IMG/VR virus record: IMGVR_UViG_3300024257_000004
DNA from: a virus
Taxonomy: Duplodnaviria; Heunggongvirae; Uroviricota; Caudoviricetes; Schitoviridae
Strand: one strand, 5' to 3'
Length of the DNA stretch: 64,000 nucleotides
Shown here: positions 386 to 33,692 of the stretch, in pieces
Layout of the letters: each line of letters begins with the position of its first letter
Numbering within the stretch: position 1 is the first letter of the stretch
Position numbers and translations under genes: made by a program
The notes under the pieces: generated by a model
Told to the model about the DNA's origin: nothing
What the model saw: only the letters and a program-made list of their open reading frames with translations
The model's database searches: none

Positions 386-2656
386 TTATGCCCCACATCC
401 ATCACATTCCTCATCTTCAAGGTCTGATTCGTCAATAGGTGTATGTGTGTAATATAATGATTTAAGGCCAAGTTTCTCAGCATAGATTATGTCATTAATT
501 ATTTCGTAGGCTGAATCAGGTTTAGCGTATGCTAATGACACTGATTGGCCCATATCAATAAACTTCTGCCTGATTGCAGCAAGTTCAATAGTATCCGAAT
601 TAGGGATATTAAATGTAGTTTGGTAGTACTCTCTATTTTGATTCAAGTTAGGTACTACAAACGGTAATGAGTATGTACCTTCTTGGATAGTTTTAAGCTT
701 TCTAGGCGCATCAACACCTTCAGTAGCGTTAATAGCTTTAGAAGAGGTTGCGGTAGGCGCAATAGCTAGTAAGTATTCGTTTCTGATACCATACTTGAGT
801 AATTGAGTTCGTAAGTATTCCCAATCCATTAATAATGGGTAGTTAAGTTCTGAGTCCTGATTATGCAGGATAGATAACTCGTGAGGGAATATACCTTCAG
901 CCCACTTAGTGTCATTAAACACTGGACATCTACCACGTTCAGAAGCTAGTTTTATAGATGCTTCAATGGCGAAGTAAGATATCTCTTCTGATATCTCGTG
1001 AGTTAATTTACGAGCACCTTTTGATCCCCATAGGAATCTGTTAGATGCTAATAAGTTTGCGTAATTAGAAGCACCAATACCGATATTCCTATGCTGTTCA
1101 GAGTGATACTTACCTAACGGGTTAGAGTAGAATGCGTTATCAATAGCGTTATCCATAGATGATACTAATGTATACATAAACTTAGATTTCTCAGTAATAT
1201 TTAGTGTTACCCAGTGCATTAAATTAGCAGATGACAAATTACATAAAGCAATGTCGCCTTTGTACTTTCTGCCCATAAACGTACCATAATTGGTACTGGT
1301 AACTAAATCGTCCTCAAGATGCTCAATTGCTTTAAAGTTAGGTAAGTACTCACAACATAAGTTAGATTGAGTAACAGTACCTGCTCCGATATTCTGAATA
1401 TTAGCATTATCAGTAAAGAATGTATAGATATTTCCAGTTTCAGCTTTCTGAGTAGCTACAGTGTAAGCTAAATCTCTAGCTGAATACTTCCTCTTGTGGA
1501 TGTGATTATTTCTGGAGTACTTAGCGTATAAGTCCTTCCATTCATCACCCCAAGCGTAGGTCATATCTTGAGTCTTGTGCGGATCTATTAGGTATATTGG
1601 TTCATCATTACAGATTGCATCTGATAACGTTGAATTCCACTTAATTGAATACTTAAGTTTACGCGCTCTGTCTTCATCCTTACCGGATTCAGATTTAAGC
1701 ATAGTAATCTCAGGCGATTGATAGTGAAACCAATTGTAGTATACAGCACAAGCCGAAGACCTAGTAGATCCCTGGTTATATGCTCCTACCGCTGCTTGAG
1801 TTTTCTGTATAAACGGTATAACTCCGCCAGAATAGCCTTTATTACCATCAACTACTGCGCCTTTAGCCCTAATAGCTGATACATCAAGAGATAAACCTCC
1901 ACCAAACTTAGATTCTCTACCTAATAGATCATCAACTACGTTTAGTGATTCAAGTGAATCTTCCGGTCTTGCTAAACAGCACGAAAACATTTGTGCGTTC
2001 TTTCTACCAGAGTTCACTGTTTTAGGTGTTGCTTCTGTTACGGCGTGAGTTGCTAATTGATTATACTTATCGATGATAGCGTCTACACCCTGTTTGTGCA
2101 TAAGGTTAATAGCAATCCTCATATAGACATGCTGAGGGAGTTCAACAATCTGTTTCTTATGGTGGTTGCAGTACTTTTGTACAAATACATTTAGACCACC
2201 GAACGTGAACAATAGGTCATTTTCCGGTCTAATTGCGTCAGATAGCCTACGGTATACAGCTGTATCATAAATAAAGTTGAATAAATCAGCGTCATAAATA
2301 CCTTTGTCGATATTAGCTAAAGTTAATGACTTGTAGTCTGGATAAAAGTCTCTAAGAACTCCCATATCCTTATGAATTTTCAATAGGTATAGGTTCTTAG
2401 CCACAGTCTCCCATTTAGGAGCTATATCTGATATTAGATTAGCCGCTGTCTCGATTAATTCATTGAATAGCTTAACTATACTGATTTTATCGTATATTCT
2501 AATGCTAACTGCATTGATTAGTTGATCAGCGAATGCCGGTGAACCATCACATGCCCACTTAATAACCTTATACAGTTTATCAGGGTTGTAAGGTTCCGTT
2601 GTACCGTTTCGTTTAATTACGAGGTGGGACTTACCTTTAATTACTGTTATACTCAT
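386..2656 (-). CDS. nrdA: Ribonucleotide reductase class Ia large subunit with N-terminal ATP cone
   Basis: 756 aa. The N-terminal ATP-cone segment reads VIKRNGTTEPYNPDKL. An SNLCCEY active-site motif matches the NrdA SNLCLEI motif. The C-terminal CDGCG redox cysteine pair is present. Confidence 0.92.
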   Translation of the reverse strand: MSITVIKGKSHLVIKRNGTTEPYNPDKLYKVIKWACDGSPAFADQLINAVSIRIYDKISIVKLFNELIETAANLISDIAPKWETVAKNLYLLKIHKDMGVLRDFYPDYKSLTLANIDKGIYDADLFNFIYDTAVYRRLSDAIRPENDLLFTFGGLNVFVQKYCNHHKKQIVELPQHVYMRIAINLMHKQGVDAIIDKYNQLATHAVTEATPKTVNSGRKNAQMFSCCLARPEDSLESLNVVDDLLGRESKFGGGLSLDVSAIRAKGAVVDGNKGYSGGVIPFIQKTQAAVGAYNQGSTRSSACAVYYNWFHYQSPEITMLKSESGKDEDRARKLKYSIKWNSTLSDAICNDEPIYLIDPHKTQDMTYAWGDEWKDLYAKYSRNNHIHKRKYSARDLAYTVATQKAETGNIYTFFTDNANIQNIGAGTVTQSNLCCEYLPNFKAIEHLEDDLVTSTNYGTFMGRKYKGDIALCNLSSANLMHWVTLNITEKSKFMYTLVSSMDNAIDNAFYSNPLGKYHSEQHRNIGIGASNYANLLASNRFLWGSKGARKLTHEISEEISYFAIEASIKLASERGRCPVFNDTKWAEGIFPHELSILHNQDSELNYPLLMDWEYLRTQLLKYGIRNEYLLAIAPTATSSKAINATEGVDAPRKLKTIQEGTYSLPFVVPNLNQNREYYQTTFNIPNSDTIELAAIRQKFIDMGQSVSLAYAKPDSAYEIINDIIYAEKLGLKSLYYTHTPIDESDLEDEECDGCGA

Positions 2657-3137
2657 TGTATTCCTTGTAATATTGTTTGATTGTGTCTAGTTTAACAAAC
2701 TCAAAGTTATTGTTATCTAGATTAACGTTAAAGTATCGTGAGTCTGGTATAACATCGCCATGTAGATGACCATGAATATTCCCAAGCCTGCCCCGTACTT
2801 CTTTTGGGTGAATAGGGCAATGCGATATCCACATCGATTTGTAGCAAAACAGAGGTAACTGCATCTCTACAAAAGACTCATCATAGAGTTTACGTGAATC
2901 ATGGTTACCCATAACTAATTTGATGCGGCATTTGGCTTGCGATAGCCGTTGTACATATTCTTCATAATGAGGACCGTCAAATAGAAAGTCTCCGAGGAGT
3001 AATAAAACGTCACGTTTACCTAGTGAAAGAATCATATTGATGATATAGTCATCGTGTTCTTCCACGGTACCAAATTGTGGTCTATACTTAATAATTGCCT
3101 TATGTCCTAAGTGTGTGTCTGAAGTGAAATAAACCAT
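2637..3137 (-). CDS. Ser/Thr protein phosphatase (calcineurin-like metallophosphoesterase)
   Basis: 166 aa with metallophosphoesterase motifs DTHLGH, GDFLFDG, GNHD and GHLHG. Confidence 0.8.
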   Translation of the reverse strand: MVYFTSDTHLGHKAIIKYRPQFGTVEEHDDYIINMILSLGKRDVLLLLGDFLFDGPHYEEYVQRLSQAKCRIKLVMGNHDSRKLYDESFVEMQLPLFCYKSMWISHCPIHPKEVRGRLGNIHGHLHGDVIPDSRYFNVNLDNNNFEFVKLDTIKQYYKEYNEYNSN

Positions 3138-7529: not shown

Positions 7530-9833
7530 CTAAAATTCCCATCTCGCCACCTGTTCAATGATAGATATTCTGAATCGTTCATCGTCCATAGGATCATACC
7601 AGTAATCGTTGATTTCGTGCATAAGGGCGACCACTGATTCCTTAGTTGCCCCAAGGTCTTTAGCGTGCTTAGCGGCTCTGATTAACGCTCTAGAACAATT
7701 TGCTTCACACTCAAATGCATATGAGAATGTAGTAAGCTTGTTCTGTAACTGCGCGTCCATTTGAGACTTATTAAGTTTCTTAGGTTGTGAATTAGTTCCA
7801 GATAAAGCGTCAGATGAAGCTAATATAAACTCTTTGGCAGCTAATGGTTCTGCATCTAGTACTGATAGTACATTACGGTCTGCATAACTAAAATATATCT
7901 GCCCTTTAGGTAAGTTATCCACTTCAAGTTGCAGTTTATTTGCTATTGCTTGAATAAAGTATTTCCATTGTATGTCAGATACACTAACTACAGTATCTAG
8001 TTGCAGTAGTACTCTAAATTTAAATGGGTTATCTGGGTCCGACGTACGTGCTATATGGTGGTTAATGTCTTCAAGTAAGTAGTGAGCTTCCTCATCAGTA
8101 ATATCTGACGTATCGACATCAAGTACTACCCAAGAACACCCTCCTACGATATTATTACGACCTCTAACTCTGCCGCTAGGATTAGGATGCTTTTTACGAT
8201 CAATATCTGCACCGTTAAGTACATCCTTCAGCTCGAATGGTGTATAAGCAAAGTCATTAGTTAATAAATCAGCTAATTCTTCGAAAGAGGTTGGACCATA
8301 GTCATACCCGTGTACAGCAGTAGCAGCTACAAAAGCTTTAGCTTTCTTGATACGTTCATAGTCAGCATTTTCAGAAACTAGTTTCGCTACATTAGAATTA
8401 TCTACTTCTATATAGGATACGCCCATTTCCGTAGCAACTACCTGCTTTTCATAGCAGATGGCTGAGTTTTCTTTACAGATAGTGTATACGCCTTCTGGGT
8501 CATACGATGAAGCTAAATGTACTAATTCACACATATTAGTTGTTGAATCACCTTTAGGTGGTATGTATCCTAGCTTACGTAAGTCATGAAGAGTTATCAT
8601 AAACTTGTTATCAATAGCATGTAATTGCATATATTGAACAAATAGTTCATATGCTTCTTTCGATAATTGTTCTTCGAATGATAATAAATCCGGAGATAAA
8701 GTCTCTATAGTATTGATTGCATCGACATAATGAGATTCATTAATAGTTTCTGATTGATCAAGAATTGCGTAAGTACCTGATAATTTGAGGGCTAACCACT
8801 GCTTGTGTTTACGTGCTAGCTTACTTATAGGATAATGTGCATCTAAGTCTTCAGATTCTCTGGAGTTGTATTCAAGGTATATATCAAATAGGTCTTGAGC
8901 GCATGATTCCAGTGGTAATGTTTCCGGGATAGTATCAATATTAGTAACTAATTGATGAACATAGTCACCCACCAGTTCTTGAGCATGCGATACTCTTTCA
9001 CGTTCAGCTTGTTTATGTTTACGTACTTCTGTGATTGATTTGAAATTCTTCATCGGCACTTTATCTGGAGAGAAACTAAATAATGACCTACGTGCTAACT
9101 GTGTACTAAATACTGTACGAAATTTAGCCTTTATATTATTATCATAAAGAATAGCATCCTCTGAGCCAAATAGTAGAGCGTTAATAGGTAAAGCATTTAC
9201 TTCCCCGGTTTGATTCTCTGATGACTTAACAATCTTTGAAGGTATTTTACCTAAGTCATAACCAACTGCTATAGTTTTAATAATATCTATAAGTAGTGGG
9301 TTTGATTGTAGGTCAGTACCAATTTCAGACGTATTAACTGAAGCAGCTCCAATTGCCCCTTCTTCTAGGTGAACAAAATGTTGAACTAGTCCTTCTACTG
9401 TACCAAGACCAGCTTGTAGCGCTCTAGGTTTAGTATAGTAACTAATCCATTGATCAGTATTAGCTCCGTCAGCTTTAGCAGCTTCTTCGGCTTTTTGTAC
9501 AGCAAATTGTTCTCTGTAGTCTTCTATTATGTTATAAGATTGTTTAAATGCTTTTCTAATCATATTCATAGAACTATCTTTTGCTTGACCTGATCTTGCT
9601 AGTGCAAATGTAATAGCGTTACATGGTACTACAGTTCCGTCATGCAGTGTAATAGATCTACGTAGATGTGAAATCAGAGTAATTAACTCTGATAATGCTA
9701 TAGATAATCGTAAGTTATACGGAGCGTCTTCTGGGAGAATATCCACTGTTGCAGATACTACTTCGTGTGTAAGTGGTTTGAATGCCCCTTTACTCTCTAA
9801 GTGAGCACGTAGCATGTCTTTAGTTGTGCACAT
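7530..9833 (-). CDS. Putative replication protein with primase-polymerase (AEP)-like motif
   Basis: 767 aa with no Walker A. The C-terminal region has WVVLDVDTSD (hhhDhD), typical of AEP primase motif I. It sits between the ATPase and DNA polymerase genes. Confidence 0.4.
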   Translation of the reverse strand: MCTTKDMLRAHLESKGAFKPLTHEVVSATVDILPEDAPYNLRLSIALSELITLISHLRRSITLHDGTVVPCNAITFALARSGQAKDSSMNMIRKAFKQSYNIIEDYREQFAVQKAEEAAKADGANTDQWISYYTKPRALQAGLGTVEGLVQHFVHLEEGAIGAASVNTSEIGTDLQSNPLLIDIIKTIAVGYDLGKIPSKIVKSSENQTGEVNALPINALLFGSEDAILYDNNIKAKFRTVFSTQLARRSLFSFSPDKVPMKNFKSITEVRKHKQAERERVSHAQELVGDYVHQLVTNIDTIPETLPLESCAQDLFDIYLEYNSRESEDLDAHYPISKLARKHKQWLALKLSGTYAILDQSETINESHYVDAINTIETLSPDLLSFEEQLSKEAYELFVQYMQLHAIDNKFMITLHDLRKLGYIPPKGDSTTNMCELVHLASSYDPEGVYTICKENSAICYEKQVVATEMGVSYIEVDNSNVAKLVSENADYERIKKAKAFVAATAVHGYDYGPTSFEELADLLTNDFAYTPFELKDVLNGADIDRKKHPNPSGRVRGRNNIVGGCSWVVLDVDTSDITDEEAHYLLEDINHHIARTSDPDNPFKFRVLLQLDTVVSVSDIQWKYFIQAIANKLQLEVDNLPKGQIYFSYADRNVLSVLDAEPLAAKEFILASSDALSGTNSQPKKLNKSQMDAQLQNKLTTFSYAFECEANCSRALIRAAKHAKDLGATKESVVALMHEINDYWYDPMDDERFRISIIEQVARWEF

Positions 9834-10599
9834 TATAATTCCTTCATTATTTGTTTAATTTCCTCCGTAGAGCAGTTATTTGGTAGTTCAGTTTGACTAG
9901 CCCAGTCAGGGCCTATTTCTAGGTTAGCTTCGTTATGTACTATTTGATTATCCATAAAATCCTTCACCATAATTTCAACTAAGTTGTTATTTAGCCATTT
10001 AATTAAGGCTGGATCAGCTTTGATTATTCCATAAATTGAATCATAAATAGTCGACGTGACGTATAAGTCCGATTCAGGTATTTTAGCTTCTGCTTGTCTA
10101 TGGTGTAACTCATTAATTGAAATAGCAGTTAGTATTGACCAAAATTGTGAATTAGCGTTAAATAGCGTTCTTGAGTCTTTGTCTGGTGTATCAGAATAAA
10201 GCCTAAGACCTAATCCTATGTGAGTGTACCCAGTTTGTTTAACTTTATCGATTACCTTATTACGGAATGCTGATATATTTGGATACATCTTGTTATGGTA
10301 GTTATCAAAGATTTCCTGAGTAATAGTACCACCTTTATCAACATCAGGGAAGCCCCCATAAGCCAATTTGAAGGTTACAGGTTTAGACTCTTGTCTAAGT
10401 GCTCCGGCTTCTTCCGATGTCTTAGTAAGCTTTTTGAATAGTCTAGAAGCTTCCTTGTTATCAGTAAATTCTCCAACCATGTCTGCTATCCTATCCGGGT
10501 AGTAGTATGTAGCGGCTAATGAGTGGCCATCTAAGCCTTCAGAGAATACTGCGATTTTATTGTTATCCCCAGAAAGATTAGCTATAACTCTATCTTCTA
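9833..10599 (-). CDS. DNA polymerase I family (PolA), exon 2 (motif A second half, motif B, motif C)
   Basis: Carries motif B (KPVTFKLAYGG) and continues motif A (EDRVIANLSGD). It is in frame with exon 1 after removal of the intron, giving the spliced junction ...DYAAL|EDRVIANLSGD, which matches the PolA motif A DYSQIELRILAHLSGD. Confidence 0.75.
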
Positions 10600-11540
10600 C
10601 GTTTATATTCAACACAGCTCGTTAGGCTGTGCCGGTTCTTGCTTCGCTTACAGCGTTACAGGAAATCAAACTAACCCGGAGGATGCTGACTCGTTTGGAA
10701 CTCTATAAGCGAAGTGAACTCCTGCATGTTTCCATGCAGACTAGACTATATCATCATCCATGTAGGATGCTCACCACTTCCACCCACTTGGGTGTACTCC
10801 CTGCAAAGGGATAGTCGTTGCACGTTCCTCCGAAGAGGCTTCGCTCAGGATTGCCGGTAAATTAATACTACGGGTTTCCCTGAATTCGATGAGTTTGCTG
10901 TACACATTACTGCGTACAGGCGCTAGTTAATTAAGGTTCGAGACCAAAAATAGCCACCTGCGGATTTACGTAACCCACGAGTGACTTTGGATATATTTTG
11001 AAAAGGCACATTAGTTTGGCGAGTAGCTTCCCTATCGCTACAATAGGTAGCAATAAACTCACCAGATTTAGTGTACTGGTGTATCTCTTTAGAGCAGTGA
11101 TCATGAGTAGTTAACCCAGTATCAACTGCATGTTGAGAATTCTCCTGCTCAGTAGCCCATTCTAGGTTAGTTAAGCAGTTATTTAGCTTGTTACCATCGA
11201 TGTGGTTTACATGTGCCTTATTTTCCAAATTAGGTAAAAAAGTTTCACACATAAGTCTATGTACAGGTCTATTTCTACGAGAACCGCTATTGTCTACTAA
11301 TGTAACTATATAATAGTTGTTACTAGTATTTTTACTATTGTTTACTTGTTTAAGTATTTTAGAAGTTCCGTCTATTGTGTTTTTTCGTTTTTTGAGTGAT
11401 AGTACCTCTGTAGTCTCCCTACAGAGGTAATAGTCACTATACCCATTTATTTTTGTAAATTGTTTTTGTTCAAATACCATAGTAATCCTTTTTGTGTAGT
11501 CGAATTATAGGGGTATTTACCTTAAGTGTAACTTATGTTA
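10600..11540 (-). mobile_element. Group I intron (about 941 nt) interrupting DNA polymerase motif A, carrying an HNH homing endonuclease ORF
   Basis: Exon 1 ends with U and the intron ends with G (omega G at 10600). The 3' 320 nt (10600-10922) is GC-richer than flanking DNA and contains GNRA/UUCG-capped helices (CUGCAUG-GAAA-CAUGCAG, CCUC-UUCG-GAGG, GGG-AAA-CCC). An in-frame stop follows exon 1. Removal restores a perfect PolA motif A. Confidence 0.65.
10923..11480 (-). CDS. HNH homing endonuclease (intron-encoded)
   Basis: 185 aa with HVNHIDGNKLNNCLTNLEWATEQEN, an HNH motif followed by an AP2/NUMOD-like region. It lies inside the intron within the polymerase gene. Confidence 0.75.
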   Translation of the reverse strand: MVFEQKQFTKINGYSDYYLCRETTEVLSLKKRKNTIDGTSKILKQVNNSKNTSNNYYIVTLVDNSGSRRNRPVHRLMCETFLPNLENKAHVNHIDGNKLNNCLTNLEWATEQENSQHAVDTGLTTHDHCSKEIHQYTKSGEFIATYCSDREATRQTNVPFQNISKVTRGLRKSAGGYFWSRTLIN

Positions 11541-12603
11541 ACGCTGCATAATCTATCGAGAATACTAGGTACCCTGGAGGAGCTGTAAAGCACTTTTTAA
11601 TAGGCTTAGCGTATATTGACCCAGTTGAAGGCATATTAAGCATATTCGGCCTCTGTGACGTATAACGAGCTGATTTAGCTCCTAGTAGTTTGTAATCTCC
11701 GTAGAGTTTACCGTCTACTGAATATTTATAAAATGCTTCGATGAAGTTATTCTTTACAATTGCTCCGAATGAGAAATCGATAAAGGCTTGAGTTATTTCC
11801 TCAAGAACTGGATCCTTAGTTTCATGGTTAATTCGCTCTATTTGATCACGAGGCCATGATGGGTCACCTGTAGTTTTAGATGTTGTTTCAGATTCAAGAC
11901 CTAACCAAGCAAATAGTTCTGCTTTTTGTTGTGGTGATGATGGTAAAAATTCAGGTAGAAGTTTATCCATAGACACTGTTTTGATCTGCTCACGGTATCG
12001 TTGGTTAATTGAGTCTGCTTTAACTTTGGCTCTAGCTAATTGATTCATAGCTTCGATAGCTATTGGATCCGCTTCTGGCACAGTTTTATCCATTACTGAT
12101 TGCAGTTCAGGGCATATCTGTAAGTAGGCTTTAACTAATTTAGCTGTCCATTTAGGAATACCTAAATCTAGCATGTCCGTTGGCGGAGTTAGTTTAAATT
12201 TTGGGTAGCGTTTACGAAATTCTTCCATGTAGAAAGACCTATGAATAGTGTTACCGTTCTTGAATGTCTTCATAAAGTACTGTACATTACGTAGTTTAGA
12301 GTTGATTTCTTTTAAGTACTCATCTCGTACTTTAGGATATTTCTGCGCATGAAAGTCGATTATGATTTGGTTATTAGCTATAATTTCCTTTACACCAGAT
12401 AGTACCTCATCAAGAGTAGATTCCAATTCAGCTACACGTTCCATGTCTATAGGTAAGCCATTTGACATGATTTTGTTCGTATCTTCAATAAGTGGTTTTG
12501 CTATGTTTTCATAGAAGTAGTCTAGTTGTAATTCAGATGGGTCATATACTGAAGGGGCCGGTTGTGGTAGACACATCCAAGGCCGGTTCTGTTGGTTGCT
12601 CAT
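11541..12603 (-). CDS. DNA polymerase I family (PolA), exon 1: polymerase domain N-terminal part up to motif A
   Basis: 356-aa ORF ending ...FSIDYAAL(T). Motif A begins with DYAAL. It has its own RBS (AGGAG-N7-ATG at 12603). Confidence 0.75.
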
Positions 12604-13270
12604 TGTTAAGCTCCTTTATTTGTTTCTTCATATCATTGTATAAATACATTGTTGCACATGCATCCACAGCTGCGTATTCAAGCATCTTAGGGTCCATTTT
12701 GTTAGCTTCAGTAAATTCTAGCTCATCGGCAATAGACCATTCACCGTATACGGATCCTGCTAAATGCTTCAGTCCTGTAAGTGCTTTACTAATATCACAG
12801 TGGTTGATTAATGTTTTAGCTAAGATCTGCGTATCTTCATAATTCTTAGGGAATCGACCAGTGAAATATCTAATTAATTTACCATCGTAACCTAAGTTAT
12901 GCCATATTTGCTTAATTTCCGTTGTAACTATCCAGTTAAGTACATACTCGTGAATTTCCGGGTTAAATACTATAACAAATGAATCATATTCAGATGTAGC
13001 AATTGACATGTGAGTTATCTGTATTAATGATGGGTGTGATAACCCGTCTGATGTAGTAACTTGGTTAAGATATACTAATTCCGGATCACGAAAGGGCACA
13101 TCAAGTTCCTCACGGTAATCTTTAGCTGCTACTACTTCCTCCTTAGAGTAAATAGAGGCAGCTTCAAAATCGGCAGCGATTGGTTTATTTGCTGGTAGAT
13201 TAGCCAGGGCTTGTTTGACTTGAGGTAACGTTGTATAGTGTACCCAGTCTACTTTACGAAATGGGTTCAT
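12542..13270 (-). CDS. DNA polymerase 3'-5' exonuclease domain (separate ORF or frameshifted N-terminal part of PolA)
   Basis: 242 aa. The Exo I motif is IAADFEAAS, typical of DnaQ-like proofreading domains. It ends 62 nt inside the next ORF, in a different frame. Confidence 0.65.
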   Translation of the reverse strand: MNPFRKVDWVHYTTLPQVKQALANLPANKPIAADFEAASIYSKEEVVAAKDYREELDVPFRDPELVYLNQVTTSDGLSHPSLIQITHMSIATSEYDSFVIVFNPEIHEYVLNWIVTTEIKQIWHNLGYDGKLIRYFTGRFPKNYEDTQILAKTLINHCDISKALTGLKHLAGSVYGEWSIADELEFTEANKMDPKMLEYAAVDACATMYLYNDMKKQIKELNNEQPTEPALDVSTTTGPFSI

Positions 13271-23916: not shown

Positions 23917-24077
23917 TGTTGTATCCTTGGTTGGTTGTAATAATTAAGCCTACATGGCTCTATAAATTCCGTGTTAAAAAAAAATAAATCAAACATACTA
24001 TTTTAAACTGCGTACTATGCAGATGGTTCTAGATTTTTGATAGGCTTAATTATTACAACAGAAGCTAATTAAAGCCT

Positions 24078-24680
24078 CTATTCTTTGATTTTGTTAAGTA
24101 GCCACCACTGCAGCAGCATACGAGTTGTACTGTCAGTATTAGTTACTTCATTCAGGAATGGAAATACGTCAATGTAGTCAAGTGAATACGCTTCGATATC
24201 TTCATCAGGTGATAGTTTCTGACCTATATAATCAGTATCAGCTACTTCACAGTAGAAATGGTGTGATTTGCTACCTTTGGTACCCACAGCATTAAGTGTA
24301 GTAGTGATAGGCACTAATCGTTTAATTGGTACTAGGTAACCTAGTTCCTCATGCATTTCTTCGATAGCCGTTTTCGGTATTCTGTAGTCATCTGTACAAG
24401 AACTGTACTTGTCTACAAGGCCTGCACAACATTCAATTACTTCTCCTGAGTGGTCTGATTGATTGATCAGAACAGGAATACGAATTTGCTTAACTAGTAA
24501 TAATTCATTATGATCGATATTATTAACTAAGATGTGAACAGTGTCATGTCCTGTCCCGACTTCCCATTGGTGCTGCTTGCCTAGTTTGTCACCTCTAGTG
24601 TAAGTAACTAGCTGAGCGTCTTTAGTCAAGAACTTAGGTTCAACTAACGGTTTTTGCTTGTGTATGAAAACTGGTTTCAT
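24078..24680 (-). CDS. Nudix hydrolase (ADP-ribose pyrophosphatase-like)
   Basis: 200 aa with the degenerate Nudix box G-x(n)-IPKTAIEEMHEELGY. It is adjacent to the Nampt and Nmnat genes. Confidence 0.5.
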   Translation of the reverse strand: MKPVFIHKQKPLVEPKFLTKDAQLVTYTRGDKLGKQHQWEVGTGHDTVHILVNNIDHNELLLVKQIRIPVLINQSDHSGEVIECCAGLVDKYSSCTDDYRIPKTAIEEMHEELGYLVPIKRLVPITTTLNAVGTKGSKSHHFYCEVADTDYIGQKLSPDEDIEAYSLDYIDVFPFLNEVTNTDSTTRMLLQWWLLNKIKE

Positions 24681-25022
24681 TTAATTCTCCTTATTCTCTA
24701 ATATCCATTGACATGCTTCGAATACTGCTTCTGATTCTGTATCTGCTAAAACTATTTCTTGTGGGTTTATTTTACCAGGTGAAGCTGTGCGATGATTTAC
24801 TTCACATGACGCGGATATTGCACCATGCCCTGAAAACAAAAAGTAATTCTTAGTATAAGCCCATTCTTTACATTTGTTAGCTAGTTCGTAGATGTTGATA
24901 TACCTATAATATAGCCTACTTCCTACTTTTTCAATATATTCAATCTCATTAGGCTGAAGCTGTTCGTCAATATCAAGTTTACAGCCTAATACTTCACTTA
25001 ATAATTCTTTAGATATTGGCAT
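24681..25022 (-). CDS. Hypothetical protein
   Basis: 113-aa ORF between the Nudix and Nampt genes. Confidence 0.45.
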   Translation of the reverse strand: MPISKELLSEVLGCKLDIDEQLQPNEIEYIEKVGSRLYYRYINIYELANKCKEWAYTKNYFLFSGHGAISASCEVNHRTASPGKINPQEIVLADTESEAVFEACQWILENKEN

Positions 25023-26467
25023 TAGTTACCCCAGTTTCTGATTTCAGCTAATGTTGTTTCTTTAAGCAGTTTACCATTCTCAAACACTACACTCAGTGCC
25101 TCTACGCAATGCATATTTGGTTGCTTACCAACAATTCCAGCGATGTATTCCTTAGTTTCAGTATCGAACCAAGTAGTTACTTTACCTTTCTTGGATGCTT
25201 TACCATGGTCCGTGATTGGGTCTTTGTAGACGTCTATGTCTTCATAAATGTATCCTGATTGACCATCTTTACAGATTGGGTCATCATACCGTCTAGTAAT
25301 AGAACTACATTTAATAGCAAACTTTTGAGTATCTCTATTAACATTCTGCATTAAATCACCACCTGAGCCAAATACAAAGTTTTCAGCAGCAAAAGGTTGT
25401 GTTGATGTTTGATCTGGTGCTGGAATTGTTTCATAAGTAGTAAATGTTTTAAGAATAGTTTCTATAGTGTGCGGTGTAATACCATCACCCCATAAAATAC
25501 CAAAGTTTGTTGAAAGTGCTTTGCCTTCTATATCTGTATCAAAACAATCATTGTTGACCATTATAGCTAACATTTGCTTGATGACATTAATAGGATGACC
25601 ACTATCAGGTCTTAAGACGAATTTCTGATTTGGTCTAGATTCGATTAGTTTTCTAATCCTAGAGTCTGGATGGGTACAGAATTCAGTGAATGCATATACG
25701 TCATAGCTATCTGCCACGAATGACATAATAGGCGCATCTGGGTTAGTTAATAATTGATCATATACAAATTGTTCTTCATTATCTCTACCATATGAAGTAG
25801 TTGAGCTGTGCTCAGTAGCAAATACTGAATATGACTCAGCGATGCCTGCTCCGTAAAATTCTTCACAGAAGTCTAATGAGTTGAAGTTATCAGTTCCCAT
25901 AAATTGTGTAGAGTGTGCAAATCCGCCGATAGCTGCAGCTTCAACAGAACTAGAACCTCTGTCTCCAAAATTGTGATATGCAAATTGTGCCCATTCAGGT
26001 GAACCGTATTTTTCTAACATTTGTTTAGCATAGTAAGATTTAGTGGCTATCGTAGTTGGATACCATAATTTCATAAGTATCGTTTCAGTAAAGCCTGCTA
26101 TCCATGGTACTTTAGGGTCTGTAGATTCAATAGTCATAAGTACATGTTTAGTTAGGACTAGCGATCCCTCATCAACTGCTTTGATCTTAATAGGTAAGTA
26201 ACCTAATTGCACGATATAAGACCAACCGTCATAATCAAATGGCACACCGTGCGCTTGACACCTGTCCCTAGTTTTATCTACTTCTTCTTGCGTAGGTATA
26301 CTCATTAAATACTGTTTAATATAGTATTGAAGTCCTACAAATACTGTTGCTGGGTATACACCACCTCTAGATTCCATGTAGTCATACATAGATACTGTAT
26401 TAGCTGGGTATTGGTTAGCATGGGAGTATTTGTAGCTATCGGCTAGGTTTAAGATGTTGTTTTTCAT
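25022..26467 (-). CDS. nadV: Nicotinamide phosphoribosyltransferase
   Basis: 481 aa. The N-terminus NILNLADSYKYSHANQYP...VFVGLQYYIKQYL closely matches NAMPT/NadV (NILLATDSYKVTHYKQYP...VFYGLQYILNKYL). Confidence 0.88.
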   Translation of the reverse strand: MKNNILNLADSYKYSHANQYPANTVSMYDYMESRGGVYPATVFVGLQYYIKQYLMSIPTQEEVDKTRDRCQAHGVPFDYDGWSYIVQLGYLPIKIKAVDEGSLVLTKHVLMTIESTDPKVPWIAGFTETILMKLWYPTTIATKSYYAKQMLEKYGSPEWAQFAYHNFGDRGSSSVEAAAIGGFAHSTQFMGTDNFNSLDFCEEFYGAGIAESYSVFATEHSSTTSYGRDNEEQFVYDQLLTNPDAPIMSFVADSYDVYAFTEFCTHPDSRIRKLIESRPNQKFVLRPDSGHPINVIKQMLAIMVNNDCFDTDIEGKALSTNFGILWGDGITPHTIETILKTFTTYETIPAPDQTSTQPFAAENFVFGSGGDLMQNVNRDTQKFAIKCSSITRRYDDPICKDGQSGYIYEDIDVYKDPITDHGKASKKGKVTTWFDTETKEYIAGIVGKQPNMHCVEALSVVFENGKLLKETTLAEIRNWGN

Positions 26468-26988
26468 TTGTTATCCTTTATATAATTATACACACTTGGG
26501 TGTAAATAGTGTTTGTTAGCTTCTAGGTCTTCTCTAATTAACTTCGCTCTAATCGGTATATCAGATATAGGTAAACTAGTTGTGTGTAAGCCGTCGATTT
26601 CGTACATCTTACAATATGACTCATCAAGATAATCTACACCCCTAAAAGTGAAGTTTTGTAGGTCTTCCAACTTTTCGTGCAGATAGATTGTTATTTCGTC
26701 CAAGTCTTCACTTATTTGTTCTTGTAGTGTTGACTTCAGTAATGAATACCATTCATCCCAGCAGTTTCTGTCTTCTATAGAAATTACTTTGATGTTTGGA
26801 TATACAAGGTTAATCATAGATGTACGATCCTCTACCGAGTAAGGGTTCTTTACATTGCATGATTCTTGCGCTGATCCAGCTAATATTACAGGCTCTAACC
26901 CGTCTGCGATAATGTGATCAATGATAGATTGATGACCGGTGTGAAAGGGCTGAAAACGCCCAAGAAAGACTCCATGTTTGCGTGGCAT
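26464..26988 (-). CDS. Nicotinamide-nucleotide adenylyltransferase (NMNAT, NadM-like)
   Basis: 174 aa with GVFLGRFQPFHTGH, the (H/T)xGH nucleotidyltransferase motif of NMNATs. Confidence 0.8.
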   Translation of the reverse strand: MPRKHGVFLGRFQPFHTGHQSIIDHIIADGLEPVILAGSAQESCNVKNPYSVEDRTSMINLVYPNIKVISIEDRNCWDEWYSLLKSTLQEQISEDLDEITIYLHEKLEDLQNFTFRGVDYLDESYCKMYEIDGLHTTSLPISDIPIRAKLIREDLEANKHYLHPSVYNYIKDNK

Positions 26989-27868: not shown

Positions 27869-28338
27869 TAGTTATCCTTGTGATTGCGCATCATATTATA
27901 CAAATAGACGCCTCTAGTTTTAGTTTGCTTGAACCAACGTGATGCTTTCATTTCCAATGCAGCCTTGACCCAATTTTGTCTAGATAGTTGTGTGTGCATC
28001 TTCTTGAAAGTGCTGAATCTACTAATACCCATATTATATACCATATCCTGTAGGATAGATTTAGGTACATAAGGTAAATTAGAGTACCAGGGAAATCGTC
28101 GATCTAGGTCCTGGTCAACTACGAATAGTCGTGACACTAGTAAGTACTCAGCTTCGGCTTTAGTTATGTAAGATAAATTAGTACCGTAGCCAATTGCATA
28201 TCCATTAGCATCTCTGTATACTGAAGATACGAATCCCTCATGGTCCTTGATAAGTTCAAGAGATAACTCAGTTGGGTTAGCTCGTAATTGAGTATATGTG
28301 ATAGCCAGGATAATACCTAGTATATAAAGTAGTTTCAT
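27868..28338 (-). CDS. SAR endolysin, T4-lysozyme-like glycoside hydrolase family 24
   Basis: 156 aa. An N-terminal hydrophobic SAR/signal segment (MKLLYILGIILAITYTQ) is followed by LIKDHEGFVSSVYRDANGYAIGYGT, matching the GH24 catalytic E...D...T region. Confidence 0.82.
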   Translation of the reverse strand: MKLLYILGIILAITYTQLRANPTELSLELIKDHEGFVSSVYRDANGYAIGYGTNLSYITKAEAEYLLVSRLFVVDQDLDRRFPWYSNLPYVPKSILQDMVYNMGISRFSTFKKMHTQLSRQNWVKAALEMKASRWFKQTKTRGVYLYNMMRNHKDN

Positions 28339-29434: not shown

Positions 29435-29780
29435 ATCTCCTTTAGTTATAAATTGTTTTTGAGACCGACATCAGTGTCGGCATCAAATCTACACACTAGA
29501 TCAGACTCCTACCAGAATTGCTCCGATATTGTCTGATCCATCTATAGACTGTTTTTAGTGTTTATGTGCCAGTCACACAATAAACTATGCTGATTTTCAA
29601 CTGAGCCATAATTGTTGTTACGGCAATCACTAACACTTCTAGGCCTTGCATCATAGCCTACCTTCGATACGACAAGTACAACAATACCCACCGAATTATG
29701 ATAGTTGTCTAAACACACAGTGAAACATTGCTTTAAGCCAGCAAACTCCACGATTTTATACTTATAGTGTGGCTCTTAAG

Positions 29781-29888
29781 TGGTGAACCTTTCAGGATTC
29801 GAACCTGAAACCGTGCAGGGTGGACCATCCATAATACGGGTAACGATCCCGGCCCCTCGCCTGCTCTACCAATTGAGCCTAAAGGTTC
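29781..29888 (-). ncRNA. tRNA-like element, 108 nt, with a GC-rich insertion in the anticodon region (noncanonical)
   Basis: The minus-strand RNA reads GAACCUU-UA-GGCUCAAUUGGUAGAGC...UCAGGUUCGAAUCCUGA-AAGGUUC-A-CCA. A perfect 7-bp acceptor stem, a D-arm, a T-arm (GGUUCGAAUCC) and an encoded CCA are all present. The region between the D- and T-arms is 54 nt instead of about 22, with internal hairpins (CGGG-AUCGUUA-CCCG) enclosed by a GCAGG/CCUGC helix. Confidence 0.5.
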
Positions 29889-30476
29889 TCGTATGTGTGC
29901 ACTATAACTGGTGCACACACCAGGATTCTTTTATATCCCGAATTCCCTTACCATCGGCAATAGCTTACGGCTATCAATCTGATAAACACAATAGGAAGAG
30001 GTTAGAAGTAAACTCCTGCCTCGTACTATTGATTATGTAGTGCGTCTGCCGTCTGATCACTACCCGTTTGTTCGTAGGCTACGTATTCGAGATAAGTGAA
30101 TATCCAATAACTCTACACCTGTGCTTTCACTAGCGTTTCATGCAGATCAGTTAGATCACCTAACAACTATACACCGTGAGCATCTCTTCCAGAGGTCGAC
30201 GTTTGGGAGACTCTATAACTGCTGTATAACGTGTACTTGACGGATCAATGTCTTTTGGGCTCTACTGTGACTTAGCCTAGGATGTCTGCTTGTTTCGGCA
30301 CGTTCCTAGGTACAGTTGATGTATAGCTGTTAGCTAATCTAAATACTCAAGCAGACCAAGTCTTGAGCAATCTTTAGGGTCAGCCCTCGACCAAAGGGTA
30401 TAAATTATATAGAAGTCTTTTAGGCTCATACTCAGGAGCTAGGTCTAGTTATTAGGGTCAAGGTGACCACACCTGG

Positions 30477-31565: not shown

Positions 31566-32432
31566 CTACTTAGTATTAACTATAACCGGGACGTTTCCAC
31601 CCATAAGTGTTGTTGGTAACTTACCATCCCACTTAGTTAATTCTTGTTCTCTAAGTTCAAGTCTTCTAAGCTCTAATAAGTCTTTAGTAATACCTGAAGC
31701 GATCTTCTTATTGTAGTCAGCAATTCTCTTAGCTTCAATCATTTTAATGTTGTACTCACCTTTAGCGATAGCTTCTCTACCCTTTAGTTTAGTTAACTCA
31801 ATTTGAACTTGTGCTTCTTCCTTTTCAATAGCCATTCTTCTTTCTTTAGCTTTTTCAATAGCTTCAGTTACGATTGCTGGATATTCAATACTTCCGATAG
31901 TTACATCAGAGATTTCGATAGGTAAGTGGTCTAGCTTAGGTTTAATTGCATTATATAGTTCTACAGTAATTCTAGCATAATTCGTATTTACTTCATCAAC
32001 ATTGTACTGTGATATAACTTCTCTCGCTGTATTAAGTACTACCATTTTACCGTAAGTATTATATACCTCGTCTGTAGTAACTATCTTATCGTCCATTTGC
32101 ATATCATTAAAGATTGTACTGATAGTTTTGTTATCACCACTAATTCTTCCTCTGAATACTATATGAGCTTTCAATGTAAGTTTATCTTTAAGCAATACTT
32201 TAATTGGTTGAGAATATTTCTTAGTTGTTGTTTGTACTAAAAACATTTTTTCAGGAGTTAAATTCCAAATATTGTTATTTAACCAAACTTTAGATGGAGG
32301 GTATACTTCTGGCTGGAAACCAGTTTTACCCATAATTTTACCTTTGTGTCCTGCTGGGACTTGCGTGTTACAGCCTGTAAATCCAAACATCACCAAACCG
32401 GCTAATACTAATACTATTAATTGTTTTTTCAT
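31566..32432 (-). CDS. Lipoprotein with SPFH/band-7 (prohibitin-like) domain
   Basis: The signal peptide has a lipobox (LVMFGFTGC). The C-terminal region has SPFH-like and coiled-coil features (IEKEEAQVQIELTKLKGREAIAKGEYNIKMIEAKR...). Confidence 0.55.
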   Translation of the reverse strand: MKKQLIVLVLAGLVMFGFTGCNTQVPAGHKGKIMGKTGFQPEVYPPSKVWLNNNIWNLTPEKMFLVQTTTKKYSQPIKVLLKDKLTLKAHIVFRGRISGDNKTISTIFNDMQMDDKIVTTDEVYNTYGKMVVLNTAREVISQYNVDEVNTNYARITVELYNAIKPKLDHLPIEISDVTIGSIEYPAIVTEAIEKAKERRMAIEKEEAQVQIELTKLKGREAIAKGEYNIKMIEAKRIADYNKKIASGITKDLLELRRLELREQELTKWDGKLPTTLMGGNVPVIVNTK

Positions 32433-33454: not shown

Positions 33455-33458
33455 AAGG

Positions 33459-33540
33459 TTACCATATCAGGAATCGAACCTGAGACATCTTGCTTGTTTG
33501 CATTTTAAGGCAAGCGCTCTACCGACTGAGCTATACGGTA
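33459..33540 (-). tRNA. tRNA, type II (long variable arm), Leu-like with UAA in the anticodon loop; anticodon stem-loop irregular (4-bp stem, 8-nt loop)
   Basis: The minus-strand RNA reads UACCGUA-UA-GCUC-AGUCGGUA-GAGC-G-CUUGC-CUUAAAAU-GCAA-(14-nt variable)-UCAGG-UUCGAUU-CCUGA-UAUGGUA-A. The acceptor, D-arm and T-arm are canonical. Confidence 0.6.
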
Positions 33541-33546
33541 ATAGGT

Positions 33547-33692
33547 TACTCGAGTAGGGATTGAACCTACGGCCTTCATCGTGTAATGGTAAATCTGCTA
33601 GGATTTGAACCTAGAACCCCTAGACTAAGCTAGTGCTCTAACCAGTTGAGCTACAGATTTTGGATGACGCTCTACCACTGAGCTACCGAGTA
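33547..33692 (-). tRNA. tRNA-like gene interrupted in its anticodon loop by a complete second tRNA gene (outer gene; probable pseudo-tRNA or processed composite)
   Basis: The 5' half reads UACUCGG-UA-GCUC-AGUGGUA-GAGC-G-UCAUC-CA. The 3' half reads UUACAC-GAUGA-AGGCC-GUAGG-UUCAAUC-CCUAC-UCGAGUA-A. The acceptor halves (UACUCGG/UCGAGUA) and anticodon-stem halves (UCAUC/GAUGA) are complementary across a 73-nt insert. Confidence 0.5.
33588..33660 (-). tRNA. tRNA nested inside the anticodon loop of the outer tRNA-like gene (encoded CCA; anticodon arm noncanonical)
   Basis: The RNA reads AAAUCUG-UA-GCUC-AACUGGUUA-GAGC-...-CUAGG-UUCAAAU-CCUAG-CAGAUUU-A-CCA. The acceptor stem, D-arm and T-arm are perfect. 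The anticodon region (ACUAG-CUUAGU-CUAGG) has only a 6-nt loop. Confidence 0.5.

Follow-up and report, generated by a model that had tools for sequence, protein, structure and literature searches.

Among the outcomes in which bacterial immunity ends, depletion of NAD+ is one of the most common, and the rebuilding of NAD+ provides phages with a broad escape route. In the NARP2 pathway of phage KVP40, the Nampt (NadV) and the Nmnat (the Nmnat/Nudix protein NatV) rebuilt NAD+ and abolished defence by type I Thoeris and DSR2; an Nmnat is also encoded by 94 % of the phages with such a Nampt (bioRxiv 10.1101/2024.02.11.579819). The pairing of NadV with NadM in phages, as well as the Nudix domain fused to NadM, has also been described (PMC9503650). 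The NARP1 pathway, composed of Adps and Namat, has the same net effect, as it rebuilds NAD+ from the products of NADases, and its Namat is homologous to Nampt and shares the Pfam domains of the latter. It should be noted that activity against the full list of Thoeris, DSR, SIR2-HerA and SEFIR, which the initial annotation of the locus described below had attributed to the NARP2-type route, was shown for NARP1; the part that holds for NARP2 itself comprises type I Thoeris and DSR2, against which it was tested (bioRxiv 10.1101/2024.02.11.579819).

Here, we analyzed a putative NAD+ salvage cassette located within a 64,000-nt stretch of DNA from an uncultured phage, referred to as the window. The open reading frames for an NMNAT, a Nampt, a small protein (orf113) and a Nudix hydrolase were all present at the positions first assigned to them, and all four reside on the minus strand (Table 1). 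The NMNAT gene is therefore the first and the Nudix gene the last to be transcribed, in the order NMNAT, Nampt, orf113 and Nudix. The initial annotation, which placed the NMNAT downstream of the Nampt, thus had these two genes the wrong way round, and although the Nudix-like hydrolase that it reported two genes upstream does exist, it closes the cassette. Its statement that the NMNAT and Nudix functions are encoded separately instead of as a fused NatV was correct, with the Nampt gene and orf113 lying between the two. The Nampt gene overlaps orf113 by 1 nt, the Nudix gene abuts orf113, and a Shine-Dalgarno sequence of the AAGGA/GGAG type is found 6 to 9 nt 5′ of the ATG of all four genes. Four independent metagenome contigs carry the cassette in 100 % identical form.

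Table 1. Features of the putative NAD+ salvage cassette, in order of transcription; positions refer to the window
Feature	Position	Strand	Description
NMNAT gene	26464..26988	−	174 aa; first gene of the cassette; stand-alone, archaeal/NadM-N-domain type
Nampt/NadV gene	25022..26467	−	481 aa; nicotinamide phosphoribosyltransferase
orf113	24681..25022	−	113 aa; small phage protein without assigned function inside the cassette, judged a passenger
Nudix hydrolase gene	24078..24680	−	200 aa; last gene of the cassette; NUDT14/NudK/ADP-ribose pyrophosphatase subgroup
Intergenic region 3′ of the Nudix stop codon	23917..24077	−	161 nt; holds a perfect 18-bp inverted repeat

The region behind the Nudix stop codon is the sole sizeable gap within the string of genes that runs from position 28338 to 23244. 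The arms of its inverted repeat occupy positions 24042-24059 and 23934-23951, and the repeat, AGGCTTAATTATTACAAC, occurs in the window in two copies of inverted orientation. The gap is predicted to fold as RNA with a free energy of −42.5 kcal/mol (z = −4.66); a search of the gap against Rfam returned no match, and a simple scan for terminators called no canonical one within it. The cassette genes are probably co-transcribed as a single minus-strand unit, of which the gap represents the probable 3′ boundary.

The assignment of the 481-aa protein as a nicotinamide phosphoribosyltransferase was borne out by Pfam, NCBIfam, PHROG and PDB matches. With membership judged by the whole-protein score against the curated cut-offs of Pfam PF18127 and PF04095 and NCBIfam NF006629, the protein matched the NAPRTase profile with an E value of 5e-27 (95.5 bits; cut-off of 20.8) and NAMPT_N with 1e-22 (80.7 bits; cut-off of 25), and it scored 418.2 bits against NF006629, over the cut-off of 405. 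It also matched PHROG 448 (5e-115) and, over the full length, both Xanthomonas NAMPT (PDB 7yqo; 1.6e-92) and human NAMPT (approximately 1e-71). Besides RDTQKF, the protein contains the motifs ATEHSS (His220), RPDSG (position 286), WGDG (326) and GSGG (367), which align with their counterparts in 7yqo and in phage Nampts. Judging from human NAMPT, we take the His to be the auto-phosphorylated residue and RPDSG, GDG and GSGG to bind PRPP. The HDFG motif, in contrast, reads HNFG, with Asn165 in place of the Asp; the same position is occupied by Asn in five and by His in one of the six relatives from the Nampt clade, whereas 7yqo and the five phage Nampt/Namat sequences used as references all keep the Asp. 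This Asp corresponds to human D219, which reads the amide of nicotinamide and selects nicotinamide over nicotinate, and therefore the substrate preference of the clade could differ.

Since Nampt and Namat share the same Pfam domains, a separate clade test was needed to tell them apart. In pairwise BLAST comparisons, the 481-aa protein shared 35 to 40 % identity with the Nmnat-linked Nampts of Myxococcus phage Mx1, Synechococcus phage B3 and Vibrio phage X1 and 28 to 29 % with the Adps-linked proteins from phages REP7 and Staph1N. A neighbour-joining tree placed it with the Nmnat-linked (NARP2-type) Nampts, apart from the two Adps-linked (NARP1) Namats. Its identity to the Nampt of any cultured phage reaches only 34 to 40 %, Mx1 being among the closest (39.8 %).

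The Nmnat that a NARP2 pathway calls for in the same phage is provided by the adjacent 174-aa gene, which overlaps the start of the Nampt gene by 4 nt (ATGA). The identification of its product as an NMNAT, proposed on the basis of the GRFQPFHTGH motif at residues 10-19, was upheld by profile searches and by a structure model. The protein passed the gathering score of the Pfam CTP_transf_like profile (6.8e-9), and its best NCBIfam models, all of them NMNAT families (1e-15), scored under their curated cut-offs; TIGR01527 gave 55.4 bits (cut-off of 181.2) and NF002243 57.2 bits (cut-off of 127), with matches spanning only the N-terminal 60 to 90 residues. A profile of the NMNAT family searched against PDB matched only NMNATs, including that of Methanocaldococcus jannaschii (MJ0541, PDB 1f9a; 1.6e-18) and NadM (2qjo; 1.9e-16). 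The AlphaFold model (pLDDT of 95.3) yielded NMN adenylyltransferases as all of its top 21 Foldseek matches in PDB, ahead of NadD and PPAT, and superimposed over the full length on archaeal NMNATs (1m8f, 1ej2, 1f9a) with TM scores of 0.72 to 0.75.

The archaeal enzymes of M. jannaschii and M. thermoautotrophicum (PDB 1ej2) are of similar size (168 to 181 aa) and share with the 174-aa protein the GRxQPFHxGH motif as well as a conserved Trp that follows strand 3, whereas the overall identity is only about 22 %. Residues R11, H16, H19, D73, W80 and R152 were invariant among 43 homologues, and residues with the numbers R11, H16 and H19 are those mutated in the M. thermoautotrophicum structures 1m8f, 1m8g and 1m8k. 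In the profile alignment, RAKLIR (residues 147-152) stands opposite the SGTEIR of MJ0541, with the invariant R152 alone being kept; at the place of the archaeal C-terminal SxTxxR motif (SGTEIR) the clade has IRAKxIR, and distant family members keep ISATDIR. The motif, the profile searches and the confident structure model thus identify the 174-aa protein as an NMN adenylyltransferase of the archaeal/NadM type.

The 200-aa Nudix protein scored under the curated cut-offs of both Pfam and its best NCBIfam model. Its score against the Pfam NUDIX profile (PF00293) was 18.4 bits, with a gathering score of 21.1, and it matched TIGR00052 (YffH/AdpP) over the full length with an E value of 6e-18 (65 bits; cut-off of 79.55). 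When a profile of its family was searched against PDB, the matches included human NUDT14 (2e-30), NudK (1e-24), ADP-ribose pyrophosphatases (1e-12) and NUDT5 (1e-10). Human NUDT14 and Escherichia coli NudK, the best solved relatives, align near full length and have in common with the cassette protein an N-terminal beta domain, the Glu triad and an SVGxxGS segment. Unlike these two, the cassette protein is encoded within a probable NAD+ salvage operon. The Nudix box reads G87...E108-x-x-E111-E112-L-G114-Y115 and retains the catalytic, metal-binding Glu triad (REUxEE); among 39 homologues, residues E83, G87, D90, E108, E112, G114, Y115, G133 and E160 were invariant and E111 was at least 90 % conserved. 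Altogether, the scores of the profile searches for the Nampt, NMNAT and Nudix proteins are far beyond chance, and sequence comparison assigns the last one to the NUDT14/NudK/ADP-ribose pyrophosphatase subgroup.

We also considered that the Nudix protein might be a freed Nudix domain of NatV/NadM. This was rejected, as BLASTP against the full NadM of Vibrio phage X1, the only phage NadM compared, detected no similarity (E = 1), and the NadM structures 2qjo and 2qjt were not among the family-profile matches at E values up to 0.001. The lack of detectable similarity to the Nudix domain of X1 NadM suggests that the protein is a separately recruited helper and not part of a split NatV.

The association of the three enzymes is conserved. 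A contiguous trio of NMNAT, Nudix and Nampt genes was found in nine other loci of uncultured phages, at only 45 to 66 % identity; it was present in loci L016-L019, in five of seven IMG/VR loci seeded with the Nudix and in three of four seeded with the NMNAT, and was seen in metagenomic contigs only. In L016-L019, as well as in the five Nudix-seeded loci, the Nudix homologue is flanked by the NMNAT and Nampt genes. In addition, the NMNAT and Nampt genes lay near each other in the same orientation in each of the 14 further distinct related loci that were examined, L008-L013 and one additional contig among them.

In comparison with KVP40 NARP2, the cassette appears alike in both core reactions, in a Nampt of the Nmnat-linked clade and in a pathway-associated Nudix activity, and the NMNAT gene precedes the Nampt gene as it does in the NadM-Nampt pair of Vibrio phage vB_ValS_X1. 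It differs from KVP40-type systems in its stand-alone NMNAT, which is only 26 % identical to the N-domain of X1 NadM, in its separate Nudix gene of another subgroup and in its distant Nampt with the Asn substitution. The separate NMNAT already has a precedent, since phage Mx1 encodes an annotated 184-aa 'nicotinamide-nucleotide adenylyltransferase' approximately 1.3 kb from its Nampt. In contrast to cultured phages such as Mx1, however, the cassette contains a NUDT14/NudK-like Nudix, for which a tblastn search of 50,697 phage records gave no match.

On the basis of the profiles, the comparisons with solved structures, the confident structure model and the conserved linkage, we consider it likely that the Nampt, the separate NMNAT and the separate Nudix constitute an NAD+ salvage cassette of the NARP2 type, in which the Nudix serves as a helper that recycles ADP-ribose, in agreement with the two-enzyme route proposed initially. 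In such a pathway, which unlike NARP1 would not use ADPR-PP, the Nampt would convert nicotinamide and PRPP to NMN, from which the stand-alone archaeal-type NMNAT would form NAD+ with ATP. The Nudix, whose substrate is the most provisional of these assignments, would most likely cleave ADP-ribose, the other product of TIR, SIR2 and SEFIR NADases, to AMP and ribose-5-phosphate, and the host PRPP synthetase could convert the latter to PRPP. Both fragments of the destroyed NAD+ would be recycled in this way, and NAD+ would stay available in infection while an NAD+-depleting defence fires. The anti-defence benefit is presumed by extension from the genes of KVP40, with which identity is only about 35 %.

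Alternatively, the cassette could represent a general auxiliary metabolic module that raises NAD+ for phage replication and nucleotide metabolism, with any effect on defence being incidental. We regard this as a genuine possibility, if short of probable. NARP2 raised NAD+ also in cells that lacked any defence system, a consequence of its use of PRPP as the starting compound (bioRxiv 10.1101/2024.02.11.579819), and NadV is common in general, being found in 22 % of medium and 33 % of jumbo phages (PMC9503650). Moreover, the cassette is embedded in the window among genes for replication and nucleotide metabolism, encoding ribonucleotide reductase, helicases, primase, DNA polymerase A and ligase. 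However, the ligase domain is ATP dependent and not NAD+ dependent, and therefore no obvious phage consumer of NAD+ was found in the window; the conserved Nudix of the ADP-ribose type is easier to reconcile with a recycling of what NADases release than with a simple increase in NAD+; and in one relative the NMNAT gene adjoins genes for Apyc1 (anti-Pycsar) and a PARP-like protein. The metabolic and anti-defence readings are not mutually exclusive.

A second alternative concerns the Nudix, which could serve for trimming of NAD+/NADH, hydrolysis of NDP-sugars or destruction of signals such as gcADPR instead of recycling ADP-ribose. Its nearest solved relatives prefer UDP-glucose (NUDT14) or GDP-mannose (NudK) as much as ADP-ribose, and unlike theirs, its Nudix box contains a 6-residue insertion and a Glu (E107) in place of the canonical Arg. 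The Nudix of NadM, too, has been proposed to regulate NAD+ by cleavage (PMC9503650), and a text search of the literature did not turn up any phage Nudix assayed on gcADPR. We nevertheless consider such roles unlikely, as the Nudix gene of most relatives is strictly contiguous with those for NMNAT and Nampt, which points to a function in the same pathway, and all 26 PDB matches of the family profile were NDP-sugar or ADPR pyrophosphatases, ADPR hydrolases forming the majority. Furthermore, Lee et al. reportedly found in 2017 that ADP-ribose is among the preferred substrates of the Nudix of KVP40 NatV.

The salvage cassette with its presumed ADP-ribose-recycling helper represents a variant of the already described rebuilding of NAD+ against NAD+-destroying immunity and not a new system or principle. 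Its contribution is to place the Nampt-Nmnat route in a divergent lineage of uncultured phages, in the form of a conserved trio whose Nudix is non-orthologous, and this lends support to the view that the pathway benefits when ADP-ribose is cleared or recycled. For work on substrate specificity, the cassette also offers compact single-domain enzymes and an active-site variant of natural origin, with Asn replacing Asp. A more speculative and rather doubtful extension is that NARP2 became fixed in this clade as a three-enzyme module through independent recruitment of a non-NadM Nudix, with hydrolysis of ADP-ribose or a gcADPR-type signal being itself selected and not a relic of the NadM fusion, and with the Asp-to-Asn change in the Nampt widening or shifting its pyridine substrate, e.g., to nicotinate. 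If this were true, hydrolysis of ADP-ribose or of immune signals derived from it would be selected as counter-defence.

The position of the 113-aa open reading frame inside the cassette was confirmed, but its role as a cassette component was not. A working part in the pathway, such as handling of nicotinamide or ADP-ribose or regulation of the enzymes, could be suspected from its translational packing between Nampt and Nudix and from its identity in all four contigs that carry the cassette. Such a part is improbable, however, given that orf113 was absent from all related cassettes examined, where the equivalent places hold other inserts (DUF723, an AAA protein and small ORFs), and that its homologues, one at 67 % identity and others more distant, reside among unrelated early or replication genes. 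None of 68 viral IMG/VR loci with an orf113 homologue had a Nampt, NMNAT or cassette-type Nudix gene within 6 kb. The fold of orf113 shows no nucleotide-binding features and is best matched by an uncharacterised phage protein; in structure and sequence, orf113 may resemble the phage protein of PDB 1r7l. We therefore judge orf113 to be a passenger, an unrelated small accessory gene that landed inside the cassette.

Finally, tblastn with two phage Adps proteins yielded only noise in the 64-kb window (E values above 3), the longest contig on record with an identical orf113 being approximately 115 kb, and no Prs-type domain was detected in the other ORFs of the window by Pfam or in the eight large ORFs that were scanned against PHROGs only. 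The possibility that the 481-aa protein is a NARP1-type Namat making NAD+ directly from ADPR-PP, to which the shared Pfam domains and the Asp-to-Asn change of a clade that is not textbook Nampt might point, is very remote, as the protein groups away from the Adps-linked Namats, the window contains no homologue of Adps or Prs by tblastn or Pfam, and an NMNAT, for which a Namat has no need, is encoded close to the Nampt and in the same orientation in all of the relatives that were examined.

The cassette at 24078-26988 is a NARP2-type system, in which a Nampt and an Nmnat would reconstitute NAD+. Its four ORFs have exactly the coordinates and lengths given in the initial annotation; however, the "downstream" and "upstream" used there were plus-strand terms and are reversed with respect to expression, as all four ORFs lie on the minus strand. 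The genes are tightly packed, with 4 nt (ATGA) shared by NMNAT and Nampt, 1 nt shared by Nampt and orf113, and orf113 directly adjoining the Nudix gene; an AAGGA/GGAG-type ribosome-binding site is located 6 to 9 nt 5′ of the ATG of each gene. The cassette forms part of a long same-strand gene run, whose first sizeable gap (161 nt) directly follows the Nudix stop codon. A promoter scan revealed sites no more numerous than in shuffled sequence and a terminator scan found none convincing at either cassette end, which leaves the boundaries of the transcription unit presumptive. The cassette proteins are 100% identical on three JGI metagenome contigs, and a fourth contig (ENA) carries a cassette identical except for two NMNAT residues. 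The gap 3′ of the Nudix gene contains a perfect 18-bp inverted repeat (AGGCTTAATTATTACAAC) with arms approximately 90 nt apart and only two copies within the window. The predicted RNA structure of this region reaches -42.5 kcal/mol (z = -4.66), and the hairpin had no match in Rfam.

Coordinates of the cassette genes and of other features discussed in the text
Feature	Coordinates	Strand	Remarks
NMNAT-like ORF	26988 to 26464	minus	174 aa, transcribed first
NMNAT C-terminal motif	26533-26553	minus	residues 146-152
Nampt	26467 to 25022	minus	481 aa, transcribed second
Nampt codon 165	25973-25975	minus	Asn
orf113	25022 to 24681	minus	113 aa, transcribed third
Nudix	24680 to 24078	minus	200 aa, transcribed fourth
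Inverted-repeat arms	23934-23951 and 24042-24059		3′ of Nudix
Metallophosphoesterase gene	2637-3137	minus	166 aa, calcineurin-like
ORFs with the group I intron	12542-13270, 11533-12603, 10923-11480, 9833-10615
Group I intron	10722-10943	minus	Rfam RF00028
ORF-free segment	~29480-30470	minus	~1 kb
tRNA-like segment	29781-29888		108 nt
Abnormal tRNA genes	33457-33540 and 33587-33660	minus	Rfam 62 and 56 bits
SPFH/Band 7 gene	31566-32432	minus
Neighbour genes of related cassettes	L012 8045-9129; L008 6901-7638; L017 8517-10303

From the established chemistry of the enzyme families and the work on phage KVP40 we infer a four-step scheme. Nampt would convert nicotinamide and PRPP to NMN, NMNAT would combine NMN and ATP into NAD+, the Nudix hydrolase would most likely cleave ADP-ribose to AMP and ribose-5-phosphate, and the host Prs would return ribose-5-phosphate to PRPP; both NADase products would then be recycled. 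The substrate of the Nudix enzyme is the least certain element of this scheme, while the families, motifs, NMNAT fold, and gene linkage are directly established. The two KVP40 genes abolish type I Thoeris and DSR2 defence (bioRxiv 10.1101/2024.02.11.579819); the wider list of defence systems in the initial annotation was shown for NARP1. The main rival explanation is that the module simply raises NAD+ for phage metabolism, which is compatible with a role in counter-defence.

The assignment of the 481-aa protein as a Nampt was borne out by Pfam (NAMPT_N, 1e-22; NAPRTase, 5e-27), the NCBIfam model NF006629 (418 bits; cut-off, 405), and PHROG 448 (5e-115). The protein matched solved NAMPTs over the full length (Xanthomonas 7yqo, 1.6e-92; human, ~1e-71) and carries the His of ATEHSS together with the RPDSG, WGDG, GSGG, and RDTQKF segments. 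Pfam domains alone do not distinguish a Nampt from the NARP1 enzyme Namat, which works with ADPR-PP (bioRxiv 10.1101/2024.02.11.579819). Because the shared domains cannot tell the two enzymes apart, we compared the protein with references of both kinds, namely the Adps-linked Namats of phages REP7 and Staph1N (n = 2) and the Nmnat-linked Nampts of Vibrio phage X1, Synechococcus phage B3, and Myxococcus phage Mx1 (n = 3). The window protein and its metagenomic relatives clustered with the Nmnat-linked Nampts (35-40% identity) and apart from the Adps-linked pair (28-29% identity), and no Adps homologue was found in the 64-kb window by tblastn or Pfam. On the tree and the lack of Adps in the window, a Namat/NARP1 identity was rejected.

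The HDFG segment, kept in every reference phage Nampt/Namat and in the Xanthomonas NAMPT, reads HNFG in the window Nampt, with Asn at residue 165. Asn also occupies this position in five of six clade relatives, the sixth having His (HHFG). The Asp of HDFG corresponds to human D219, a residue in contact with the nicotinamide amide that confers selectivity against nicotinate. Its change to Asn raises the possibility that pyridine substrate preference may have shifted in this clade.

The GRFQPFHTGH motif reported for the 174-aa protein was found at residues 10-19. Both Pfam (CTP_transf_like, 6.8e-9) and the NCBIfam NMNAT models (1e-15, well under their cut-offs) recognized the protein, the single-sequence profile matches being limited to its N-terminal third. 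A profile built from 43 homologues retrieved only NMN adenylyltransferases from the PDB (MJ0541, 1.6e-18; NadM 2qjo, 1.9e-16). The full length of the AlphaFold model (pLDDT, 95.3) could be superposed on archaeal NMNATs (TM, 0.72-0.75), followed by NadM and NadR; all of its best 21 structure matches were NMN adenylyltransferases, with NadD and PPAT ranking lower. Invariant residues of the family are R11, H16, H19, D73, W80, and R152, the first three of which have the same numbers as the positions mutated in NMNAT structures from M. thermoautotrophicum. The C-terminal motif, (Y)SGTEIR in archaeal enzymes, is IRAKxIR in the clade of the window NMNAT (the window protein itself has RAKLIR in place of SGTEIR): Arg and Lys stand where Ser and Thr would be, and the final Arg alone is invariant. 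In more distant members of the family, ISATDIR is retained. The window NMNAT also aligned end to end with the N-domain of NadM, the fused NMNAT-Nudix protein, from Vibrio phage X1 (26% identity, 2e-12).

In searches of the 200-aa Nudix protein with family models, Pfam NUDIX remained below its threshold (18.4 versus 21.1) and TIGR00052 (YffH/AdpP) matched over the full length (6e-18). A 39-homologue profile searched against the PDB matched NUDT14 (2e-30) and NudK (1e-24), followed by bacterial ADP-ribose pyrophosphatases (1e-12) and NUDT5 (1e-10), and all 26 matches were NDP-sugar or ADP-ribose pyrophosphatases. The metal-binding Glu triad (E108, E111, and E112) and G114-Y115 are conserved, while the Nudix box of the window protein has its Arg replaced and a 6-residue insertion. 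An origin by splitting of a NatV-type fusion was rejected, as the protein shared no detectable similarity with the X1 NadM Nudix domain (E = 1), NadM structures were absent among the PDB matches of the profile, and tblastn found no relatives among 50,697 phage records. By these comparisons, the Nudix protein is an enzyme from a neighbouring subgroup that was recruited separately. We further scanned one genome per species from 185,579 cellular species, where the single window protein as a query retrieved no relative. Patterns derived from the full 39-sequence alignment were too loose; a 12-sequence subset yielded a single close relative, which lies on a 2.6-kb contig assigned to a Sulfurimonas MAG (locus L107), and its remaining matches were distant Nudix genes that stand alone, with no NAD genes beside them.

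The linkage of these genes recurs in metagenomic relatives. NMNAT homologues (~60% identity) lie near a same-strand Nampt with one to several genes between them (loci L008-L013 and a contig of SRR14699981), and in four further contigs (L016-L019) Nudix homologues (46-55% identity) stand between NMNAT and Nampt. A contiguous same-strand NMNAT-Nudix-Nampt order was present at five of the seven Nudix-seeded IMG/VR loci; the NMNAT-seeded loci had Nampt in 4/4 and Nudix in 3/4 cases, one of these three weakly. Loci L008-L011, without a clear Nudix, encode at the same position a 182-aa protein with weak Nudix-box similarity (1e-4). Relative to these loci, the window order NMNAT-Nampt-orf113-Nudix is rearranged, and related cassettes carry inserts of their own (DUF723, an AAA protein, and small ORFs). 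Phage NadV accompanied by NadM or NatV is already well described (PMC9503650; bioRxiv 10.1101/2024.02.11.579819), and stand-alone NMNATs beside Nampt are already found in cultured phages, Myxococcus phage Mx1 being an example. New here are the Asp-to-Asn change in the Nampt pocket, the altered NMNAT C-terminal motif, and the conserved arrangement of three genes, known from uncultured phages only, whose Nudix is NUDT14/NudK-like and not of the NadM kind.

The neighbours of related cassettes vary and include metallophosphoesterases, RNA ligase, a small GGDEF protein, and, at a single locus, Apyc1 with a PARP-like gene; together they look like a counter-defence or nucleotide-signal neighbourhood. 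On the Logan contig of SRR14699981, Apyc1 (anti-Pycsar) directly precedes NMNAT and a WGR-PARP-like gene directly follows it. In other relatives, Nampt is followed by a GGDEF-domain protein of 146 aa and by one or two metallophosphoesterases, or an RNA ligase lies close by.

The remaining gene, orf113, had no match in Pfam, PHROG, or NCBIfam. Its family comprises at least 221 small proteins or clusters and 68 IMG/VR loci (family loci: the window gene, L005-L007, L022-L025, and L035-L102). Among recorded contigs with an identical orf113, the longest measures about 115 kb. The N-terminal, central, and C-terminal motifs are strongly conserved, with nearly invariant termini, two invariant Cys residues, and a highly variable middle, a pattern typical of proteins under diversifying selection. 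One homologue with 67% identity, like others that are more distant, lies among unrelated early or replication genes, and Nampt, NMNAT, or a window-type Nudix occurred within 6 kb of the homologue at none of the 68 IMG/VR loci. We conclude from this that orf113 is a passenger gene.

The window represents one portion of a large tailed-phage genome, with genes for ribonucleotide reductase, helicases, primase, DNA polymerase A, and lysozyme, as well as an ATP-dependent ligase domain and a tRNA cluster. Megablast queries with the cassette and with the surrounding 12 kb returned nothing from 50,697 phage records. At the DNA level no cultured phage is a near relative, and protein identities to cultured phages are ≤45%. 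One NMNAT homologue (P0141) is labelled "Epsilonproteobacteria bacterium" at NCBI, and this label and the Nudix relative of the Sulfurimonas MAG are weak hints at Campylobacterota hosts for the phage clade. The window G+C content is ~36%, compatible with such a host.

A group I intron (99.8 bits, E 1e-24) splits the DNA polymerase A gene, whose exonuclease, N-terminal polymerase, and C-terminal polymerase parts appear as individual ORFs. A 185-aa ORF overlapping the 5′ end of the intron may encode a homing endonuclease; taken together, the window ORFs include GIY-YIG, HNH, and T5orf172 endonuclease domains. The segment without ORFs or called genes has a G+C content of 0.41-0.51 versus ~0.35 and folds better than shuffled sequences (z = -3.35). 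It drew no call from ARAGORN or Rfam and includes a tRNA-like stretch in which an acceptor stem, a D arm, a T arm (GGTTCGAATCC), and an encoded CCA end accompany an oversized middle. The anticodon loops of two tRNA genes are abnormal. For one of them, ARAGORN gives either a 4-base anticodon or a tRNA-Cys(GCA) containing a 7-nt insert; the second, with a loop of 6 nt, carries the label "Stop|Leu". The two may represent suppressor-like or degenerate tRNAs. Finally, a metallophosphoesterase gene adjoins that for ribonucleotide reductase, and elsewhere the window encodes an SPFH/Band 7 protein; in Vibrio phage X1 and in metagenomic relatives, both gene types also occur in the vicinity of the NAD+ cassette.
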